From positions 1-33,091 of the forward strand of contig JBBTVF010000033.1 of the NCBI GenBank assembly GCA_038063335.1: 33,091 bases of DNA, written 5' to 3'. The notes under the pieces are model-generated. The model saw nothing but the letters and a program-made list of their open reading frames with translations, was not told the origin of the DNA and did not search any database. The DNA comes from Patescibacteria group bacterium. Lineage in GTDB: Bacteria; Patescibacteriota; Minisyncoccia; UBA6257; UBA9933. Below are positions 956 through 33,091 of this stretch, piece by piece (position 1 is the stretch's first letter; every line of letters begins with the position of its first letter). Position numbers and translations under genes: made by a program.

Positions 956-1063
956 CCCCCACACCAAAAATTTTAGGACGATTAGCTCAGCGGCAGAGCA
1001 TTGCATTCACATTGCAAGGGTCAGAGGTTCGAATCCTCTATCGTCCAAATTTTGGTGTGGGGG
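956..1063. repeat. Palindromic element; arms CCCCCACACCAAAA (956-969) and TTTTGGTGTGGGGG (1050-1063) enclose the inner tRNA
   Basis: Perfect 14-bp inverted repeat read directly from the sequence. The same CCCCCACACC/GGTGTGGGGG arms recur at 27566-27597. Confidence 0.85.
976..1047 (+). tRNA. tRNA-Val (anticodon CAC)
   Basis: Canonical cloverleaf: GGACGAT-TA-GCTC/AGCGGCA/GAGC-A-TTGCA/TTCACAT/TGCAA-GGGTC-AGAGG/TTCGAAT/CCTCT-ATCGTCC-A73. No encoded CCA. Confidence 0.9.
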
Positions 1064-4114: not shown

Positions 4115-5760
4115 ATCAAGAAACCAAAACCTGCCAAAATTGCAAACAAAACTTCACTATAGAACCTGAAGATTTTGAGTTTTACGAAAAAGTGAAGGCG
4201 AAACCGCCGAAGTATTGTCCTGACTGCCGCCAACAAAAAAGATTGGCTTTTTGGCCTTTTGCGAAATTTAATAAGCGAAAGTGTGATTTAAGCGGAGAAA
4301 GCATAATTTCAATTTATCCTTCAAGCGCGCATTTTCCGGTTTATAAATCCAGCAATTGGAATTCCGATGCATGGGAACCGCCATTTTTGGATTATGACGC
4401 TTCAAGGAATTTTTTTGAACAGCTTTATGAATTGCAAAAAAAATCTCCTAAGCCTCATCAATTTGGGTCCAATAATCAAAATTGCGATTATTGCGACGAT
4501 GTCTGGGATTCAAAAAATTGCTATCTCTGCCGTTCTTTGGGCAGTTGCGAAAATCTTTCATATTCATATAGGGTGCTAAATTCCCGCGATTCTTATGATT
4601 TAACTTATTGCTATGATTCCGAGTTGTCCTACGACTGCACCTATTGTTTTAAGCTTTATAATGTAAAGTACGCTTTTGATTCGCGCGATAGTTTTGATAG
4701 CGCGTTTTTATATGATTGCCGAAATGTGAGAAATTGTTTTATGTGCTGGAATTTGCGCAATAAAGAATATCATATTTTAAACCAACCGTATTCCAAGGAA
4801 GAATATTTCCAGAAATTAAAAGAATATAATTTGAATTCTTGGAATACGGTTCAATTTTTAAAGAAAAATTTTGAAAAAAAGATTAAAGAAGAAGCGGTTC
4901 ATAAAAACAATTTCAACACGAAAACCATAAATTCAAGCGGTAATTATTTAAGCGAGTGTAAAAAATGCAAAAATTCTTATTTTTTGGAAAAATCGGAAAA
5001 TTGTTCTTATTATTTCAGAGGAGCGATGAATAAGGACGTAAACGACTCGACTGGAGTTTATAAAGGAGAATTAGCGTATGACGTGAATCAAATGACAGAA
5101 ATATACAATATGAAGCATTCCAATTATTGTATTAATTGCCGCGACAGCGAATATCTTGATTCGTGCGTCGGGTGCGAGAATTGTTTCGGGTGTGTTGGTC
5201 TTAAACATAAAAGCTATTCCATTTTAAATAAACAATATTCCAAAGAGGATTATTATGATTTGGTTGTCAAAATCAAGAAAGCGATGGAAGACGACGGTTC
5301 TTATGGAGAATTTTTTCCTAATAAGATGGCGCATGGCGGATATAATCTTTCGCTTGCTGGAATATTTTTCCCGAAAACAAAAGAAGAAGTTTCTAAATTA
5401 GAAGGAAATTGGGAAGAGCTGGAAGATACGGATATATCCAATATGAGTTTTAGTCCATTTGTGGACGATATTTCAACCGTAGAAAGCGAGATGGCCGGAA
5501 AAGTCTTTTTGTGCGAAGAAACCGAAAGGCCTTTTAATTTTAAAAAAGAAGAAATTGAATTTTATAAAAAACATTCCATTCCTTTGCCCCATCACTATCC
5601 TGATGTGCGCACCAAAAGCAGGATAAAAAATTTATTCTGCATCAATCCGGTTGAGGCCAAATGCGCGTTTTGTCAAAAAGATATTATTTCTTATTATCCC
5701 AAAGAATGGGAATACAAAAAAATTACTTGTAATGAATGTTATTTAAAGGAAGTAGTGTAA
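4111..5760 (+). CDS. Cysteine-rich zinc-ribbon repeat protein, paralog 1
   Basis: 549 aa. N-terminal CxxC...CPDCR ribbon, two internal modules ending in C.NCF.C..L..K.Y.ILN..YSKE(E/D)Y, and a C-terminal EIEFYKKHSIPLP...CxxC ribbon. Clear paralog of 5771, 9429 and 11441. Confidence 0.8.
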   Translation: MNQETKTCQNCKQNFTIEPEDFEFYEKVKAKPPKYCPDCRQQKRLAFWPFAKFNKRKCDLSGESIISIYPSSAHFPVYKSSNWNSDAWEPPFLDYDASRNFFEQLYELQKKSPKPHQFGSNNQNCDYCDDVWDSKNCYLCRSLGSCENLSYSYRVLNSRDSYDLTYCYDSELSYDCTYCFKLYNVKYAFDSRDSFDSAFLYDCRNVRNCFMCWNLRNKEYHILNQPYSKEEYFQKLKEYNLNSWNTVQFLKKNFEKKIKEEAVHKNNFNTKTINSSGNYLSECKKCKNSYFLEKSENCSYYFRGAMNKDVNDSTGVYKGELAYDVNQMTEIYNMKHSNYCINCRDSEYLDSCVGCENCFGCVGLKHKSYSILNKQYSKEDYYDLVVKIKKAMEDDGSYGEFFPNKMAHGGYNLSLAGIFFPKTKEEVSKLEGNWEELEDTDISNMSFSPFVDDISTVESEMAGKVFLCEETERPFNFKKEEIEFYKKHSIPLPHHYPDVRTKSRIKNLFCINPVEAKCAFCQKDIISYYPKEWEYKKITCNECYLKEVV

Positions 5761-16798: not shown

Positions 16799-16873
16799 GG
16801 CGCCATCGTCTAGCCTGGTCTAGGACATCAGGTTTTCATCCTGGAAACACGGGTTCGAATCCCGTTGGCGCTA
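16799..16873 (+). tRNA. tRNA-Glu (anticodon UUC)
   Basis: GGCGCCA-TC-GTCT/AGCCTGGTCT/AGGAC-A-TCAGG/TTTTCAT/CCTGG...ACGGG/TTCGAAT/CCCGT-TGGCGCT-A. The D-arm is typical of tRNA-Glu. Confidence 0.85.
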
Positions 16874-16880
16874 CAAAATT

Positions 16881-28361: not shown

Positions 28362-28870
28362 TTTTTTATTTTATCTATAAACAAAATTCCGTTGAGGTGG
28401 TCTGTTTCGTGTTGAAAAACTCTGGCGGTCAGTCCTTCTGCTTTGATTTTAATTTTCTGGTCGTTTTTGTTAAAACCGGTTAGGGCGATTTTTTTCGGCC
28501 GTTCCACTTCGCCGAGAACTCCGGGAACGCTTAAACAGCCCTCTTCAATTATTTCCGTTTGTTTGGAAAATTTTATGATTTCCGGATTGAAAATCGCGTA
28601 AAATTTTGCTTCATCGGGAGATGGCATAATAATTTTATTTTTTTCGTCCCGTTTTAGCGGTTTGTCCGGAATTAAAGCGACAAACATTTTTAAATTCAAG
28701 CCGATTTGATTGGCGGAAAGCCCGATGCCGTTGGCATTCAACATTATTCCCCGCATTTTTTTAATCAATTCGTTGATTTCTTTTTTAGAGAATTTTACGA
28801 AGTCAAAATTTGCGGTTTTTGTCCGCAAAAATTTCTCCTCTTTTTTATTGTTAATGGTAAGAATTTTCAT
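28358..28870 (-). CDS. def: Peptide deformylase
   Basis: GIGLSANQIG, EGCLSVPG, QHETDHLNG (HExxH). Start overlaps the integrase stop and stop overlaps the fmt start, 4 nt each. Confidence 0.93.
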   Translation of the reverse strand: MKILTINNKKEEKFLRTKTANFDFVKFSKKEINELIKKMRGIMLNANGIGLSANQIGLNLKMFVALIPDKPLKRDEKNKIIMPSPDEAKFYAIFNPEIIKFSKQTEIIEEGCLSVPGVLGEVERPKKIALTGFNKNDQKIKIKAEGLTARVFQHETDHLNGILFIDKIKK

Positions 28871-29694
28871 AAATTATCCAATGGGCTTTTAATATTTCTA
28901 ATGGCTGGATTGGTAACTTTTGTATAGAGTTGGGTTGTTCTGATATTCTGATGCCCCAATAATTCTTGTACATATCTTACATCAACTCCATTTTCCAGCA
29001 AATGTGTCGCAAAGCTGTGGCGGAGTGAATGGAAAGTCGCCTCTTTTTGGACACCTGATTTTTTGAGTGCGTTTTCAAAAACTTTTTGCGCCGTTCGTTC
29101 TGTTAATTTTTCACTGCGTTCACTGGCAAATAAATAATCATTAATGTTTTTATTTGAAATCGATTTTTCAATATTTTTAACTAATTTTTCAGGTAAAATA
29201 GTAATACGATCTTTATTTCCTTTTGCTCCTTTAAGATGAATTGTCAATTCCGCTAAATTAATATCTTTCACTTTCAAATTTATAACTTCGCTGACACGGA
29301 ATCCGGCTCCGTAAGACAAGGCAACGATTAATTTATGTTTTTGATTTGAAATGGAATTTATAATTTTTTCTATTTCCAGCCGCGAAAGCACTATTGGCAA
29401 CTTTTTTGATGTCTTGGCAAACTTTAAGTCAATCACAATCAGCGATTTCATTATATCGCGATAGAAATATTTTATCGCGTTAAGATAAAGATTGATGGTT
29501 TGCGACGATTGTTTCCTTTCTTGTTTCTCTAATAGATATTTTTTGATTACATCAATATTCGGGTCTTTCTCAATGGTTCCAATAAAACGAAAGAAATTGG
29601 ATAAGCACAGAATATAGCTTTTTATCGTTTTGCGACTGTAGTTGCGCAATCTTAGCTCGTTTTCAATTTTTTGCAACAACTCTTGTGTTTGCAT
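28867..29694 (-). CDS. intI: Tyrosine recombinase; candidate integron integrase, short form without the IntI-specific extra domain
   Basis: R-H-R-Y set: GAGFRVSE, HSLRHSFATHLL, LLGHQNIRTTQLYTKV. The N-terminal YSRKTIKSYILCLSNFFRF and C-terminal IKSPLDNL resemble IntI as remembered. Divergent from an attI-like site and a cassette array. Confidence 0.8.
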   Translation of the reverse strand: MQTQELLQKIENELRLRNYSRKTIKSYILCLSNFFRFIGTIEKDPNIDVIKKYLLEKQERKQSSQTINLYLNAIKYFYRDIMKSLIVIDLKFAKTSKKLPIVLSRLEIEKIINSISNQKHKLIVALSYGAGFRVSEVINLKVKDINLAELTIHLKGAKGNKDRITILPEKLVKNIEKSISNKNINDYLFASERSEKLTERTAQKVFENALKKSGVQKEATFHSLRHSFATHLLENGVDVRYVQELLGHQNIRTTQLYTKVTNPAIRNIKSPLDNL

Positions 29695-29808
29695 TAAAAT
29701 TATGCTATTTTAACTATGGAGTCGATAAAATAATCTTACTAAAACTTCGCATAATACGCAAGTTTTAGTATATAAACAGAAATTTATTCGCATAATAACG
29801 AGTTATGT
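29695..29808 (+). other. attI-like region
   Basis: Direct repeats TCGCATAATA (29747-29756 and 29788-29797). 11-bp palindrome TACTAAAACTT / AAGTTTTAGTA (29737-29770). Terminal core GTTATGT at 29802-29808, after which sequence complementary to the end of cassette 1 begins. Confidence 0.6.
29746..29774 (+). promoter_or_regulatory. Candidate cassette promoter (Pc-like) within attI
   Basis: TTCGCA, 17-nt spacer, TATATA, oriented into the array. Overlaps the attI palindrome. Sequence-only guess. Confidence 0.3.
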
Positions 29809-29916
29809 GAAATAGCCAGAAATTTCTTTTTTCTATTTTAAAGTTTTTTTTGGCAATTTATTTTCACGGTCGACATAACTTGATATTTAATAATTTAATA
29901 AATTAACAACAAAATT

Positions 29917-30477
29917 ATGAATATCGAAAAAATTGGAAATAATCCCCCTGCAAAAGAAAATTTAAAAAATTTTCACGAAGGTGGGGCTGAAGAAGTTTTT
30001 GGGAAAGAATTTAATAAAAAAACTGCTGAGCACGGTGTAGTTTTTGATGAAAATGGAATTGCAAATGTGCCTGGCAAAAAAGTAGTGGAATTAATAGAGA
30101 AGGGCATTGTTTCGAAAGTAATTTTCTTTGATCCAGGGTACACACTTGGTGTTTTTGAAGATTCTGAAGGCAATGATACTACAGAACAAGTATTAAATTC
30201 TATTAAATTGGATACAAAATTTTTAGAATTAATGCCACGCGTAGAATTGCACGCAGGGTGGAGTGGTTTTTCCTTTGATTTGCCAACGTCTCCAGATGAG
30301 GCCCCTGAAGACCTGGCTAGAATTATAGGAGATGAGTCATCATGGTTAGCATTTTTGAAGCTTACTAAAGAAGAGGAAAATAATATTTGGTATGAAACAA
30401 GATTGAGATTGGGATTTACAAAGGAAGAAATAGATGAAGCAAAAAGAAAAGGAGAATTCCCGTCTAACCCAAAATAA
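29917..30477 (+). CDS. Cassette 1 ORF, hypothetical protein
   Basis: 186-aa ORF that fills cassette 1. No recognisable motifs. Confidence 0.6.
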   Translation: MNIEKIGNNPPAKENLKNFHEGGAEEVFGKEFNKKTAEHGVVFDENGIANVPGKKVVELIEKGIVSKVIFFDPGYTLGVFEDSEGNDTTEQVLNSIKLDTKFLELMPRVELHAGWSGFSFDLPTSPDEAPEDLARIIGDESSWLAFLKLTKEEENNIWYETRLRLGFTKEEIDEAKRKGEFPSNPK

Positions 30478-30524
30478 ATTGCCAAAAAAATTTTTATAAG
30501 GAGAAAGAAATTTCTGGCTACATC

Positions 30525-30723
30525 ACATAACAACGCATATCTGGCTACAGGAAATTGACATTTATAAAATCCTTAAGAAGTGCCAATTTCCCTCCGCCCA
30601 AATTTTCATCCCTTAGTCTGATGAAGGTTTAGGCGGAGATAATTAAACAAAACATTGTCTGAAATCAAAAGTTTATCCTACTAAGTCGGGATGAAAACTT
30701 CAGATGATGCGTAAACATTAGGC
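30525..30723 (+). repeat. attC-like site of cassette 1 (~199 bp)
   Basis: R'' ACATAAC (30525-30531). L''/L' pairing ACGCATATCTG with CAGATGATGCGT, one extrahelical base. Inner hairpin CTCCGCC...GGCGGAG. R' ATTAGGC (30717-30723; A in place of the canonical G). Confidence 0.7.
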
Positions 30724-30775
30724 GAAATTTAAATTTAGGCCTTTAAAATTTATAATAAGGAAGCTTTTTTAAAAA

Positions 30776-30813
30776 ATTTTTAAAATAAAGAGGCGACCAG
30801 TTTCAGTCGCCCC
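30776..30813 (-). terminator. Rho-independent terminator of the reverse-oriented cassette 2 gene
   Basis: GGCGAC (30792-30797) pairs with GTCGCC (30806-30811). On the minus strand it is followed by CTTTATTTTAAAAA. Confidence 0.6.
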
Positions 30814-30833
30814 GATTTTGTGAATGCCAGCGC

Positions 30834-31208
30834 TTAGGCCGCCATCAACCTTTTCGCTTCCACGGTCATTTGTGGCATATACTCAAAGAACTTGTGCCTT
30901 TCCGGATTGTCCGTGCTGGCGATTTTCTTTGGCCAATTGATTGCCCACAGCTCAGCATTCTCAATGACCTTGTGGACATCGAGAAAAAAAGCTGCTGTCG
31001 CGGAATTGCAAATGATGACCACCTTGTCATGTTTCGCCCAGTCGGACAAACATGACGGCATTTTCCCGATACCCACCAAGTCGACGAGCCTTACTTTCTG
31101 CACTTCTATCTCGTCGTGCTGGAAGTGATGCAATAACGAATCGTCAAAATCCGTAACCAGTTTGTCGCCTGAAATGTTGTTGCAGATTACCACAAACTTA
31201 GTCTTCAT
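30834..31208 (-). CDS. Cassette 2 ORF, hypothetical protein, opposite orientation and visibly higher G+C
   Basis: 124-aa ORF with a strong SD (GGAGGAGGG, minus strand) 7-8 nt upstream of the ATG, plus its own promoter and terminator. Confidence 0.65.
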   Translation of the reverse strand: MKTKFVVICNNISGDKLVTDFDDSLLHHFQHDEIEVQKVRLVDLVGIGKMPSCLSDWAKHDKVVIICNSATAAFFLDVHKVIENAELWAINWPKKIASTDNPERHKFFEYMPQMTVEAKRLMAA

Positions 31209-31263
31209 TTTTCCCTCCTCCTTAGATTGTAAGAACGATTTCGAAGCTAAAATAGCTCAGTTT

Positions 31264-31291
31264 AGTATAGCAAGAATTTACTTTATGTCAA
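31264..31291 (-). promoter_or_regulatory. Cassette-internal promoter for the 30834-31208 gene
   Basis: On the minus strand: TTGACA (31291-31286), 16-nt spacer, TATACT (31269-31264). Confidence 0.5.
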
Positions 31292-31376
31292 TATGGAGGA
31301 GTTAAAAATGAATTTTAAAAATTTTTTAAAAAAGCTTTTTTCACTTTAATATTTTAAAGGCCTAAATTTAAACATC

Positions 31377-31551
31377 GCCCAACACGGCACATGCGGTTCA
31401 TCCCGCCTTCATTGTATATATCAAGGAATGGCGGGACTCACCTAAATTGCGCTGACGAAATGGCAAGTTTAGTGATATAATCGAGTAAGCGATATTAACA
31501 AAATAATCAATTAAACCACGGCGCAACTTCGCATGTGCCGATACGTTAGGC
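31377..31551 (+). repeat. attC-like site of cassette 2 (175 bp)
   Basis: R'' GCCCAAC (31377-31383). L'' CGGCACATGCG (31385-31395) pairs perfectly with L' CGCATGTGCCG (31530-31540). R' GTTAGGC (31545-31551). Confidence 0.8.
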
Positions 31552-31603
31552 GAAATTTTAAAAAACAAACTTATATATATATTTAGCCCCTTTTAATTTT
31601 TTT

Positions 31604-32458
31604 ATGACAGATAAATTCTTAATAGAAAATGGTTATATTCCGTTAGATAAATCATGGATGATAAGAATTGGGATACTTGATTTAATTAATGGTTATGACG
31701 ATACTATAAATTATTTAGAGCAACACAAAAACGAATTAAGTGATGACCTAAAAGCTCTTTACCAAGCGTCAATTCAATGGAAAAACAACCAAGATGATAT
31801 TGACGTTGGCGAATCCGGAACATTATATAGATTTCTAAAATTCGCCTCTTGGAAACTCAATAAAAATAAAAAATTTATCCTTCACGGCACACTCAAAAAT
31901 AGAAAAATTTGTGATAATTCCGAGATTATTGACTGGCCGTTAGATAAATTATTAACGCTTAATAACGGAACTTCACAATGGGCCAGCGTTTCAATTTTAA
32001 TGGGTAGCCAGGAAAAAATTTTCAATCCGCCCCATAAACTACAAATAACCTATGACGCGGTAGAGCATTGGGATAAAGCAAGAAAAGAATCAAAATTATG
32101 GAAACCGCGATACGACAAAACAATTCTTGCGCAAGCGCTTGCTTATATAGATTGGCGTAAAAATGGGAAGATGAAATTTACCTCCCATCAAGCGGAAGAT
32201 TACTGTTTCGCACGCGCTTTTGATTTAATGACCGCGGAGGAAGGAGAAAAATTATGGCCCAGTTTAAGGGGTCACGAAAGCGATAGAATAAGCGAGATGG
32301 AGAAAGCGCTTAATGAAGAAGAAATCACTTCTACTGATCACAGGGTTGTTCAGGCAGTTTCTATATTAAAAGGCAATAAGGTTAAAATAAAATATCCGAA
32401 TGCCGTAAATAAAAGCTGGCCACAATTTTGGAAATTTTTAGAAAATTTTAAAAATTAA
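31604..32458 (+). CDS. Cassette 3 ORF: truncated EPSP-synthase / enolpyruvyl-transferase-fold protein
   Basis: 284 aa. LDKSWMIRIGIL, VGESGTLYRFL (compare LGNAGTAMRPL), GTSQWASVSILM (compare SSQFLTALLM), LRGHESDRISEM (compare RVKETDRL.AM), TDHRVVQAVS (compare NDHRMAM), NKSWPQFWKFL (compare AKTFPDYFEQL). About 150 aa shorter than AroA as remembered. Confidence 0.55.
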   Translation: MTDKFLIENGYIPLDKSWMIRIGILDLINGYDDTINYLEQHKNELSDDLKALYQASIQWKNNQDDIDVGESGTLYRFLKFASWKLNKNKKFILHGTLKNRKICDNSEIIDWPLDKLLTLNNGTSQWASVSILMGSQEKIFNPPHKLQITYDAVEHWDKARKESKLWKPRYDKTILAQALAYIDWRKNGKMKFTSHQAEDYCFARAFDLMTAEEGEKLWPSLRGHESDRISEMEKALNEEEITSTDHRVVQAVSILKGNKVKIKYPNAVNKSWPQFWKFLENFKN

Positions 32459-32564
32459 AAGGAGCTATTTAATTAGGAATGTTTATTTTTTAAAACTCAA
32501 GGGAACGCTAGCGCTTTTGACTTCTCTTTTTACTTAATTTCATAAGGAAAAAAGTCAAACCCTC

Positions 32565-32725
32565 GCCTAACAAAGAATAAAAGGAAAATACCTCGGCTCG
32601 GCATTTTCCCAAATCCCACGCTGTGGTAAAATTAAGCCAGTAGCAACTTAAGAAGTTTTGAGAATAAAATAAGTTTTACGCCATTAAATACGGCACGGGA
32701 CTTCTTTTATTCTTAAACGTTGTGC
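32565..32725 (+). repeat. attC-like site of cassette 3 (161 bp)
   Basis: R'' GCCTAAC (32565-32571). L'' AAAGAATAAAAGGA pairs with L' TTCTTTTATTCTT. R' GTTGTGC (32719-32725). Confidence 0.7.
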
Positions 32726-32762
32726 GAAATAAAATTTTTTATTACTTAACGTAAAAATCATT

Positions 32763-33020
32763 ATGGACATTGAAATCGTAGGTTTTGCTGGTTCGGCAAT
32801 CATCGCATCAGCCCTTATACCTCAGGTGATTAAATCATGGACAACTAAATCAACGGAAGATATTTCCTTGCTGTGGAATTCTTTACTTTTAACAGGGCTG
32901 ATACTCTTTGTAATATATGGTATTGGTATAAAAAGTCGTCCCATAATGATTTTTACTACGATTGAAGCGTCTCTTACACTGTCTTTGTTAATATTAAAGT
33001 TGACGCATAAAAAACGATAA
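32763..33020 (+). CDS. Cassette 4 ORF: SemiSWEET / PQ-loop family small transporter
   Basis: 85 aa with three TM helices. The PQ motif in helix 1 (ALIPQVIKSWTTKSTEDIS) matches bacterial SemiSWEETs as remembered. Confidence 0.8.
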   Translation: MDIEIVGFAGSAIIASALIPQVIKSWTTKSTEDISLLWNSLLLTGLILFVIYGIGIKSRPIMIFTTIEASLTLSLLILKLTHKKR

Positions 33021-33033
33021 AAAATTTTACATC

Positions 33034-33091
33034 GCCCAACACGGCACATGCGGTTCATCCCGCCTTCATTGTATATATCAAGGAATGGCGG
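33034..33091 (+). repeat. attC-like site of cassette 4, truncated by the window end
   Basis: 33029-33091 is identical over 63 nt to 31372-31434, the R''/L'' half of the cassette 2 attC. Confidence 0.85.

Follow-up and report, generated by a model that had tools for sequence, protein, structure and literature searches.

Integron integrases are thought to have been derived from Xer recombinases by the gain of the I2 helix, and this helix is held to permit the recombination of folded single-stranded attC sites and to block a lethal second strand exchange (PMC4792948, PMC7790495). The work of Mazel and Escudero treats I2 as the key innovation and speculates on an Xer ancestor that was hijacked by single-stranded elements, and the integrons of archaea have been found to possess a true integrase, IntI (Ghaly et al., 2022). 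Here, we analyze a contig of 33,091 nucleotides (nt) from a Patescibacteria group bacterium (JBBTVF010000033.1, assembly GCA_038063335.1), which is called the window in its whole length, and in which the last 4.2 kb consists of a tyrosine recombinase gene and an array of gene cassettes. We propose that this locus is probably a chromosomal, sedentary platform for gene cassettes, one that follows the integron principle and is run by a Xer-family recombinase; the best reading of the system is an I2-less variant of that principle, mechanistically between the CTX-type hijacking of Xer and the integrons. In full-text literature searches, neither integrons nor integron-like arrays were found to have been described in the candidate phyla radiation (CPR), the nearest reports being those on archaeal integrons, on IntegronFinder 2.0 and on a 'Cand' subgroup of Xer-like recombinases.

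The recombinase, attI and the cassettes

The recombinase gene follows rpoC (plus strand), fmt (minus strand) and def (minus strand), and it is divergent from the array, with its start codon facing a dif-like site that is taken here as attI. From the G|TT at 29802/29803 onward, a unit plan of one open reading frame (ORF) plus one long imperfect palindrome is repeated, and the window holds three complete cassettes and a fourth one that is cut by the window end. The principal features are as follows.

28867 to 29694, minus strand: tyrosine recombinase of the XerA/'Cand' type, 275 amino acids (aa), Pfam Phage_integrase and Phage_int_SAM_4
29745 to 29755, plus strand: additional copy of the left-arm motif, CTTCGCATAAT, which precedes the left arm of attI by 41 nt
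29786 to 29813, plus strand: dif-like core of attI, with left arm ATTCGCATAAT (29786-29796), spacer AACGAG (29797-29802) and right arm TTATGTGAAAT (29803-29813)
29803 to 30717, plus strand: cassette 1, 915 nt, with an ORF at 29917-30477 (plus strand, 186 aa, no family match)
30718 to 31545, plus strand: cassette 2, 828 nt, with an ORF at 30834-31208 (minus strand, 124 aa, no family match)
31546 to 32719, plus strand: cassette 3, 1174 nt, with an ORF at 31604-32458 (plus strand, 284 aa)
32720 to 33091, plus strand: cassette 4, cut by the window end, with an ORF at 32763-33020 (plus strand, 85 aa, SemiSWEET/PQ-loop transporter)

A preliminary description of the same DNA had called the locus a chromosomal integron with at least four cassettes in a CPR-like genome. 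Re-reading of the sequence puts the four junctions at the positions given there, namely after G 29802 (followed by TTATGTGAAAT), A 30717 (TTAGGCGAAAT), G 31545 (TTAGGCGAAAT) and G 32719 (TTGTGCGAAAT), and the count of at least four holds, with three complete cassettes, one truncated and further ones in longer contigs. The CPR origin also fits, as nearly all of the 80 related loci described below are titled Patescibacteria or a CPR candidate phylum. The name integron, however, stands only for the anatomy of the array, that is, the divergent recombinase, the attI, the ORF with its folded site and the exchange at G|TT, and it falls for the identity of the enzyme, which is not IntI by either the TIGR02249 model or the I2 helix.

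The recombinase reaches 232 bits with the NCBIfam XerA model NF040815 and thereby passes it (cut-off 220), whereas its 212 bits fall short of the cut-off of 265 for the IntI model TIGR02249, which is matched in two stretches that skip the IntI-specific segment; the model NF011946 likewise matches in two stretches. In the alignment with the integron integrase VchIntIA (2A3V), residues 7-180 and 195-274 of the query correspond to residues 6-182 and 240-319, and since these blocks leave the 57 residues 183-239 of VchIntIA opposite only 14 residues of the query (181-194), the IntI-specific insertion of about 43 residues, the I2 helix, is absent. The AlphaFold model (mean pLDDT 78.5) has only coil between the helices 169-179 and 199-213, with no helix at 179-199. 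The catalytic residues R133, H222, R225, H248 and Y257 are all present and are invariant in 28 homologues. In phmmer comparisons the protein scores 143 bits with IntI (VchIntIA), 150-162 bits with archaeal XerA and 93 bits with XerD, and Foldseek ranks 2A3V (IntI) first at 9e-17, with 5HXY (XerA) at 5e-16 and 1A0P at 2e-8. The recombinase is about equally close to IntI and to archaeal XerA, far closer than to E. coli XerD, and it is not an integron integrase but a Xer-type enzyme without the domain that defines IntI. Its family comprises more than 7000 protein clusters with 60-80% identity across CPR classes, the 120 listed homologues measure 272-294 aa (nearly all 272-280 aa), and the only database names of the family are XerD, tyrosine recombinase and 'site-specific tyrosine recombinase/integron integrase'. 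The closest plasmid-borne relatives (35-40% identity) are XerA-type proteins on Clostridium and Bacteroidota plasmids, for example NZ_CP077608, and these too are annotated 'site-specific tyrosine recombinase/integron integrase'.

The attI is formed by two inverted 11-nt arms around a 6-nt spacer, lies 92-119 nt from the start codon at 29694, and has its crossover between 29802 and 29803. Across CPR its consensus is a left arm TTCGCATAA, a spacer of 6-7 nt ending in G and a right arm TTRNNYGAAAT; the left arm TTCG(C/T)ATA with the spacer AACGAG is kept at 107-139 nt from the start codon in many CPR loci and classes, and an attI-like motif occurs 90-330 nt upstream of the gene in 37 of the 59 loci with enough flank. 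The right arm varies while the left arm and the spacer are conserved, which is as expected if the right arm belongs to the first cassette. The window also has a direct repeat, (C/A)TTCGCATAAT, at 29745-29755 and 29786-29796, and in many other CPR loci a third arm, TATACGAAAA, stands just upstream of the attI left arm and is palindromic with it. Judged from its sequence, the upstream copy at 29745-29755 is possibly an accessory binding site, and such extra arm-like elements recall the accessory DR1 and DR2 sites in the attI1 of integrons. Of a Pc promoter, which in integrons drives the promoterless cassettes from intI or attI, only a weak consensus match (29671-29700, 9 of 12 positions) is seen, and promoter-like sites are not enriched.

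Folded sites and the unit of exchange

The mobility of the cassettes is seen in sister contigs from the Hainich groundwater wells H41, H51 and H52, which have the same recombinase and the same flanks as the window. Cassette polymorphism, which the preliminary description had proposed to look for, is found as replacement at positions 2 and 4. At position 4, the window and contig L007 carry the SemiSWEET gene, and contigs L005 and L008 carry a 217-aa ORF with an N6/N4 DNA methyltransferase; at position 2, the 124-aa ORF of the window stands against a C45-family acyltransferase (244 aa) with a 65-aa ORF in L008. The identity of the shared blocks around the position-4 swap is about 99.3-99.8%, that of cassette 1 to its counterpart in L008 is 97.6%, and identity stops and resumes at ...TTAAACG|TT and ...GATACG|TT. 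At position 4 the whole palindrome is swapped along with the ORF (180 nt vs 105 nt). These comparisons demonstrate both the polymorphism of the array in the population and the exchanged unit with its breakpoints. The Bro-N cassette at position 5 demonstrates in addition that one cassette is common to different species, as a copy of it in L050 is bounded by G|TT in the same way, has the same outer stem and is 81% identical in DNA and 87% in protein; between the two genomes, the recombinases are only about 67% identical. Assemblies made independently of one another also break at the junctions: L011 spans window positions 30718-32721, L013 and L014 hold cassette 3 alone and both end at 32721, the GTT of the junction, and L002 ends 162 nt from the recombinase gene.

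Each cassette ends with an imperfect palindrome, the analogue of attC, which has the plan CATC-RNNY-AAC, 2-4 nt, L'' (9-10 nt), a branched loop of 50-130 nt, L', 5-7 nt and G|TT-RNNY-GAAAT. In the window the palindromes are 170-210 nt long with the right end GTTRNNYGAAAT, and across loci the sites measure 77-203 nt (median 119 nt). The R'' cores are CATCACATAAC (30521-30531), CATCGCCCAAC (31373-31383), CCTCGCCTAAC (32561-32571) and again CATCGCCCAAC (33030-33040). The integron cores RYYYAAC and GTTRRRY, as which these motifs had been described, fit only loosely (for example ACATAAC, GTTGTGC); the actual consensus is CATC-RNNY-AAC ... GTT-RNNY-GAAAT.

30521 to 30728, plus strand: folded site 1, with R'' 30521-30531, L'' 30535-30543, L' 30701-30710, spacer GTAAAC and R' 30718-30728; crossover A|TT at 30717/30718; GCATATCTG pairs with CAGAT-G-ATGC, with one bulged G
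31373 to 31556, plus strand: folded site 2, with R'' 31373-31383, L'' 31386-31395, L' 31530-31539, spacer GATAC and R' 31546-31556; crossover G|TT at 31545/31546; GGCACATGCG pairs with CGCATGTGCC
32561 to 32730, plus strand: folded site 3, with R'' 32561-32571, L'' 32574-32583, L' 32704-32713, spacer TAAAC and R' 32720-32730; crossover G|TT at 32719/32720; AGAATAAAAG pairs with CTTTTATTCT
33017 to 33091, plus strand: outer-stem right arm of cassette 4 and the 5' half of folded site 4, with R'' 33030-33040 and L'' from 33043

The inner pairing of L'' with L' is real in sites 1, 2 and 3, and the extrahelical base that had been noticed in site 1 is the one bulged G. Site 4 is complete in L007 (1537-1720). 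Sites 2 and 4, in which an identical half had been pointed out, do belong to one family: 31364-31434 and 33021-33091 share 71 nt at 96%, and in the longer contig the two sites are alike over about 180 nt. The contig L001 breaks at this repeat. Near-identical sites within one array are also known from the Vibrio cholerae repeats (VCR) of sedentary integrons. Folding calculations, likewise called for in the preliminary description, show that sites 1-3 fold well as DNA, with z-scores from -3.7 to -5.8: the bottom strand of site 1 reaches -31 kcal/mol (z = -4.0), site 2 has z = -5.8 for the bottom and -5.65 for the top strand, site 3 has z = -3.7, and no shuffled sequence folded as well for any of the three.

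Three unpaired features recur in the folded form. First, CATC lies opposite GAAAT, which gives conserved A.A and C.A mismatches. Second, the centre is asymmetric, with 2-4 nt opposite 5-7 nt (the left spacer has 2 nt in 39 of 58 sites). Third, L' is preceded by AAC(T/A)TC and L'' is followed by GGTT, so that two bases, TT, bulge out of the L arm. In the 5' to 3' direction, the L' strand (ACTTC-RNNY-AT) is similar to the conserved left arm of attI (ACTTCGTATAT or ATTCGCATAAT), and the folded site therefore appears to imitate attI. Covariation of the L boxes is demonstrated in sites that were picked by their R motifs only: double changes occur in 9 of 10 pairs, 70% of the cells are paired vs 23-40% when the boxes are slid against each other, and none of 500 shuffles reaches the observed values.

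Beyond the R box, the complementarity is extended by inverted repeats of 24-70 nt that flank each cassette body, here called the outer stem.

29802 to 29866, plus strand: outer-stem left arm of cassette 1, pairing with 30471-30531 (48 nt at 81% and 29 nt at 90%)
30471 to 30531, plus strand: outer-stem right arm of cassette 1, with R'' CATCACATAAC at its end
30718 to 30786, plus strand: outer-stem left arm of cassette 2, pairing with 31312-31382 (32 nt at 91% and 26 nt at 100%)
31312 to 31382, plus strand: outer-stem right arm of cassette 2, running into R''
31556 to 31601, plus strand: outer-stem left arm of cassette 3, pairing with 32450-32495 (46 nt at 78%)
32450 to 32495, plus strand: outer-stem right arm of cassette 3, with an insertion of about 65 nt between the arm and R''
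32719 to 32742, plus strand: outer-stem left arm of cassette 4, pairing with 33017-33040 (24 nt at 88%)

The sequence after each GTT had been described as complementary to the end of its own cassette, which is borne out with a longer reach of 24-70 nt. In 29 cassettes of many lineages, the local score of the outer stem is 19.4 with the cassette's own start vs 9.2 with the next start, and shuffled sequences score about 9; cassettes of one site family have the outer stem in common. Because the start of a cassette pairs with its own end, the most fitting view of the outer stem is that it belongs to a long attC-like palindrome which integration divides. The covariation of R'' with its own start is demonstrated as well: in 47 sites of 23 loci, the variable tetranucleotide of R'' has 1.47 mismatches to its own start vs 2.09 to the next one (pooled background 2.16), perfect matches number 15 for the own start vs 3 for the next, and the own start is the better partner in 27 sites and the worse in 12.

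The distribution of the system was followed by a pattern scan of one genome per GTDB species, which confirmed at least 335 relatives of the recombinase, and the statistics on related loci refer to the best 80 of these (57-81% identity). The titles of these 80 loci name, with few exceptions, Patescibacteria or a CPR candidate phylum (Paceibacterota, Moran-, Falkow-, Uhr-, Wolfe-, Gottesman-, Peregrini- and Kerfeldbacteria), and the exceptions probably received their labels automatically. A strict site was defined as one with both R motifs and at least 8 of 9 L pairs in register. With this definition the 80 loci hold 52 sites in array orientation and none reversed, and 2 more occur in 685 kb of other flank; the scan of both strands of the whole window returns sites 2 and 3 only. 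The density of the motif falls from 0.91 per kb beside the gene to less than 0.1 per kb beyond 7 kb. The strand and position specificity of the sites and the conservation of the system across CPR are demonstrated by these counts, and the sites of the window go beyond what chance would produce. A covariance model built from loop-trimmed sites of other lineages ranks the junction at 31505-31556 and the attI at the top within the window; the rule-based strict scanner was used because this model cannot span loops of 130 nt. The neighbourhood of the recombinase gene is not conserved, def-fmt being found downstream of it in only 3 of the 80 loci, and vertical synteny is therefore unhelpful.

In IMG/VR, which covers 2.9 million viral contigs, a single isolated site and no close recombinase were found; the system is essentially absent there, and a viral origin was rejected. 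The single site (L095 7287-7380, IMGVR_UViG_3300038954_000279) is short but complete, GCGTACAAC-AG-CCGATAAAC...GTTTATCGG-CAAAC-GTTGTATGAAAT, and has a small ORF on either side in a predicted viral contig of 39 kb, which may stem from a CPR phage or may be a CPR fragment that was misclassified.

As to the cargo, the cassettes of the arrays measure 0.5-1.8 kb, carry 1-2 ORFs and no replication genes, and their ORFs are co-oriented in 69 cases vs 11. Pfam and NCBIfam give no family match for most array ORFs, and phage or plasmid genes are absent from the cassettes. For the ORF of cassette 3, the one match, to the C-terminus of EPSP synthase (AroA), stays below the threshold, and the complete cassette 4 would end at about 33202 in window-equivalent numbering. 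DNA methyltransferase genes recur in the arrays (L005 11212-12716, L073, L019, L039 and L066); the methyltransferase of L005 with its 217-aa ORF is, by sequence, probably a restriction-modification cassette, and the recurrence hints that defence genes are common array cargo. A Bro-N protein (281 aa) occurs in the arrays of four CPR species (L007 1710-3434, L050 2500-3291, L028 4272-5039 and L055 4914-5672) with 74-87% identity, which is above the identity of their recombinases, and it may be a cassette that is traded widely or else serve the platform as an accessory factor.

Longer contigs add about three further cassettes and carry the array past the window through cassettes 5 and 6, followed by decay and by no recognisable sites before rpsB-tsf. 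In L007, the boundary after a 216-aa cassette (4232-4269) is a reduced 'simple site', an R''-like ACGCGTATAGG with TTTTTA and TTGGGTGAAAT, which has neither L boxes nor a loop. At the far end of the array, just before rpsB (L007 5795-5825), stands a palindrome GTTATTATA-GCGA-TATAATAAC whose arm order is opposite to that of attI. Upstream of the locus (1-27452), large ORFs lie with few exceptions on the plus strand, and the GC skew is positive; the skew and the GC content dip at about 11-15 kb, which coincides with a 558-aa ORF on the minus strand. The only two tRNA genes of the window (976-1047 and 16799-16874) are far from the array, and an Rfam scan of the array region returned nothing meaningful; a family for attC is not part of Rfam.

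Alternative explanations and the proposed mechanism

Several findings weigh against a dedicated cassette platform. A strict site is present in only 29 of the 47 loci with at least 1.5 kb of flank, and the site scanners were designed from the window's own sites, although the asymmetry of strand and side is independent of that design. A perfect match of R'' to the start of its cassette is limited to 15 of the 47 sites. The contigs that might be taken for excised cassettes (L004, L013 and L014) lack terminal overlap, being graph fragments that end at junctions and not circles. In the stretch from the 216-aa cassette of L007 to rpsB, which has ORFs of 79, 114 and 243 aa, a folded site is not recognisable, and this stretch may be a decayed, fixed end of the array. 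Classic cassettes are promoterless, and cassette 2 reads as a self-contained expression unit, with a promoter-like site on the minus strand (31291 to 31264, TTGACA-16-TATACT with an upstream TG, 11 of 12 matches) and a terminator-like hairpin on the same strand (30813-30790). A large, length-uniform family with 60-80% identity is what would be expected of a housekeeping Xer, and the capture of cassettes may therefore be parasitic on the recombinase. Finally, without I2 the single-strand pathway would need another safeguard, for which the asymmetric unpaired features are the candidates that we infer.

Some of these points lead to the main alternative, in which the array resembles the integrative mobile elements exploiting Xer (IMEX): the enzyme would be the housekeeping Xer of CPR and would resolve chromosome dimers, the attI would be the chromosome's own dif, and the cassettes would be gene-poor hitch-hikers that accumulate there by means of dif-mimicking hairpins, as CTX phage does, with no dedicated platform. 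We consider this explanation unlikely. In its favour, the recombinase passes the XerA model and lacks I2, its family is huge, length-uniform and strongly conserved, and the attI is a two-arm site of 28-29 bp that resembles the dif of E. coli, GGTGCGCATAA-TGTATA-TTATGTTAAAT. Single-recombinase systems such as XerS keep dif beside the gene, as well. The 'Cand' subgroup has been regarded as the likely Xer substitute of the candidate phyla (Smyshlyaev et al.). However, gene orientation does not switch at the locus over 28 kb upstream and 5 kb downstream, and the GC skew has a positive sign before and after it; of 26 other loci, for which the skew was followed over about 10 kb per side, most likewise show no change of sign across the locus, with one clear reversal (L035). 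The neighbourhood is not conserved, and the cassettes are free of phage or plasmid genes. This alternative also overlaps with a sedentary platform run by a Xer-family recombinase, since the array acts as a cassette platform even if the enzyme is also a dimer resolvase.

Duplex Xer recombination of the pdif type, with modules between inverse double-stranded sites and no folding, is very improbable. It would account for the Xer-type recombinase, for the dif-like arms and for the inverted arms that flank each ORF, but the 2-4 nt between the arms on the R''-L'' side are too short for a Xer central region, the L arms covary for pairing while their sequence is not kept, and the exchanged unit includes the palindrome and its loop, whereas the loop 'module' would stay behind under pdif. 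Because the L arms covary and the R''-L'' spacer is too short for a duplex site, the site would act in the folded state.

A canonical integron, with a true IntI and ordinary attC sites, is still more improbable and is refuted on the domain that defines IntI. The R cores come close to RYYYAAC/GTTRRRY, the exchange is at G|TT, the Phage_int_SAM_4 N-terminal domain is that of IntI, TIGR02249 gives as many as 212 bits, and VchIntIA is the best structural match. However, that score is below the cut-off and split in two pieces, IntI residues 183-239 face 14 residues with no helix at 179-199, and none of the 120 listed homologues is long enough for the insertion; the outer stems, the site length (median 119 nt, up to 203 nt) and the different unpaired features also depart from ordinary attC sites. 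Invertible segments of the shufflon or Rci kind, or inert palindromes (terminators or elements like the repetitive extragenic palindromes) that happen to lie near a recombinase, are hardly credible, as the long inverted repeats that flank ORFs and the opposite orientation of the cassette 2 ORF would suit them, but no inverted variant occurs among 20 contigs with cassette 3 and its neighbours, the two sites that bracket an ORF differ in spacer length and are unrelated in their L arms, and inert repeats explain neither the replacement at G|TT, nor the covariation of R'' with its own start, nor the bias of strand and side, nor the conservation of attI across the superphylum.

For a sedentary platform on the integron principle, the following mechanism may be proposed, in which the recombinase encoded at 28867-29694 would be the catalyst and folded single-stranded DNA, with one strand exchanged, the substrate. 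A cassette starts at the TT of a right arm and closes with the long imperfect palindrome. Folded on one strand, or extruded as a cruciform, the palindrome would rebuild a two-arm site like attI, composed of the R box CATCRNNYAAC paired with GTTRNNYGAAAT, an asymmetric unpaired centre, and an L box whose 3' strand, AAC(T/A)TC-RNNY-AT, resembles the attI left arm and carries the two-base bulge. Cassettes would leave as circles via two folded sites and enter at attI, and the expected circle junction would join, for example, ...TTAAACG of the L' side of site 3 to TTAGGCGAAATTTTAAAAAAC. Each junction of the array consists of the upstream L arm and spacer followed by the downstream R' arm, which is the product expected from the insertion of a circle at attI. 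In the circle, the palindrome would run 25-70 bp past the R box, and integration would therefore split the outer stem to the two cassette ends; the outer stem is suspected to promote the folding of the excised circle.

The exchange would take place at the border of right arm and spacer, read as G|TT in the top strand and as AA|C (5'-...YAA|C) in the bottom strand, which would be the cleavage position of a Xer monomer bound to the right arm. Cleavage at this border follows established Xer and IntI chemistry, and G|TT is also the integron crossover. Probably one strand is exchanged, and the junction would then be resolved by replication, which is the course taken in integrons and by CTX phage. 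In the choice of the strand, the part of the extrahelical bases docked by I2 may be taken over by the fixed mismatch, the bulge and the asymmetric centre. A further-reaching proposal, whose chance we put somewhat short of even, is that an I2-less Xer-type recombinase runs integron-like capture on hairpins across CPR and may double as dimer resolvase, that it represents either a pre-I2 ancestor or an independent invention, and that the outer stem is a new solution for folding and strand choice.

Comparison with known systems

The natural and widespread pairing of integron-type cassettes and folded sites with an I2-less, Xer-sized enzyme looks, by analogy, like the postulated Xer-hijacked state existing in nature, or like a convergent copy of it. 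If the system is active, the question of the evolutionary origin becomes directly testable with the cloned protein and defined sites, and CPR, which are host-dependent bacteria with tiny genomes, would have a dedicated means to acquire accessory genes, the cargo here including restriction-modification-like, transporter and Bro-N cassettes. Under the further-reaching proposal above, it would be a major and so far unrecognised route of gene exchange in these ultra-small bacteria. The array may also explain why CPR assemblies frequently break beside the recombinase gene, with 21 of the 80 contigs ending within 330 nt of it, and it is suggested that integron surveys requiring the IntI domain miss such platforms.

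The sedentary chromosomal integrons, such as the Vibrio superintegron and including those of archaea (Ghaly et al., 2022), are alike in the divergent recombinase beside attI, in the mostly co-oriented ORFs of unknown function, each with an R/L-box imperfect palindrome and an unpaired centre, in the exchange at G|TT, whereby the cassette start complements its own R'', and in the strain-variable content. However, IntI integrons, the archaeal ones included, carry the I2 domain, whereas the CPR recombinase lacks it; compared with canonical attC, the CPR stem runs 25-70 bp past the crossover and has the TT bulge and the fixed A.A/C.A mismatch; and at least one CPR cassette appears to have its own promoter, whereas classic integron cassettes are promoterless.

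The CTX-type IMEX, in which the host's Xer recombines a folded single-stranded attP with dif by the exchange of one strand and a replicative resolution, share with the CPR system an I2-less Xer, a dif-like target, a hairpin partner that mimics the duplex, and tandem accumulation. The CPR system differs in that its site lies beside the recombinase gene, apparently not at the terminus, and in its small, non-phage cassettes. CTX-type integration is irreversible, whereas the CPR cassettes look re-mobilisable, given their replacement and their sharing between species.

The archaeal XerA/dif, XerS/difSL and XerH/difH systems are alike in protein size, in the domain pair and in the 11-6/7-11 site, and the xerS gene and its difSL site are adjacent, as the recombinase gene and attI are here. 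Nevertheless, such systems are free of cassettes and have a single chromosomal site, at the terminus, whereas here dozens of folded copies follow the site and the locus shows no skew switch. The pdif modules of Acinetobacter resemble the CPR arrays in that Xer-type sites bound small, reshuffled gene modules, but they use duplex sites with 6-nt spacers in alternating orientation, while in CPR one side has only 2-4 nt, the arms covary, and the stem-loop itself is exchanged together with the gene.

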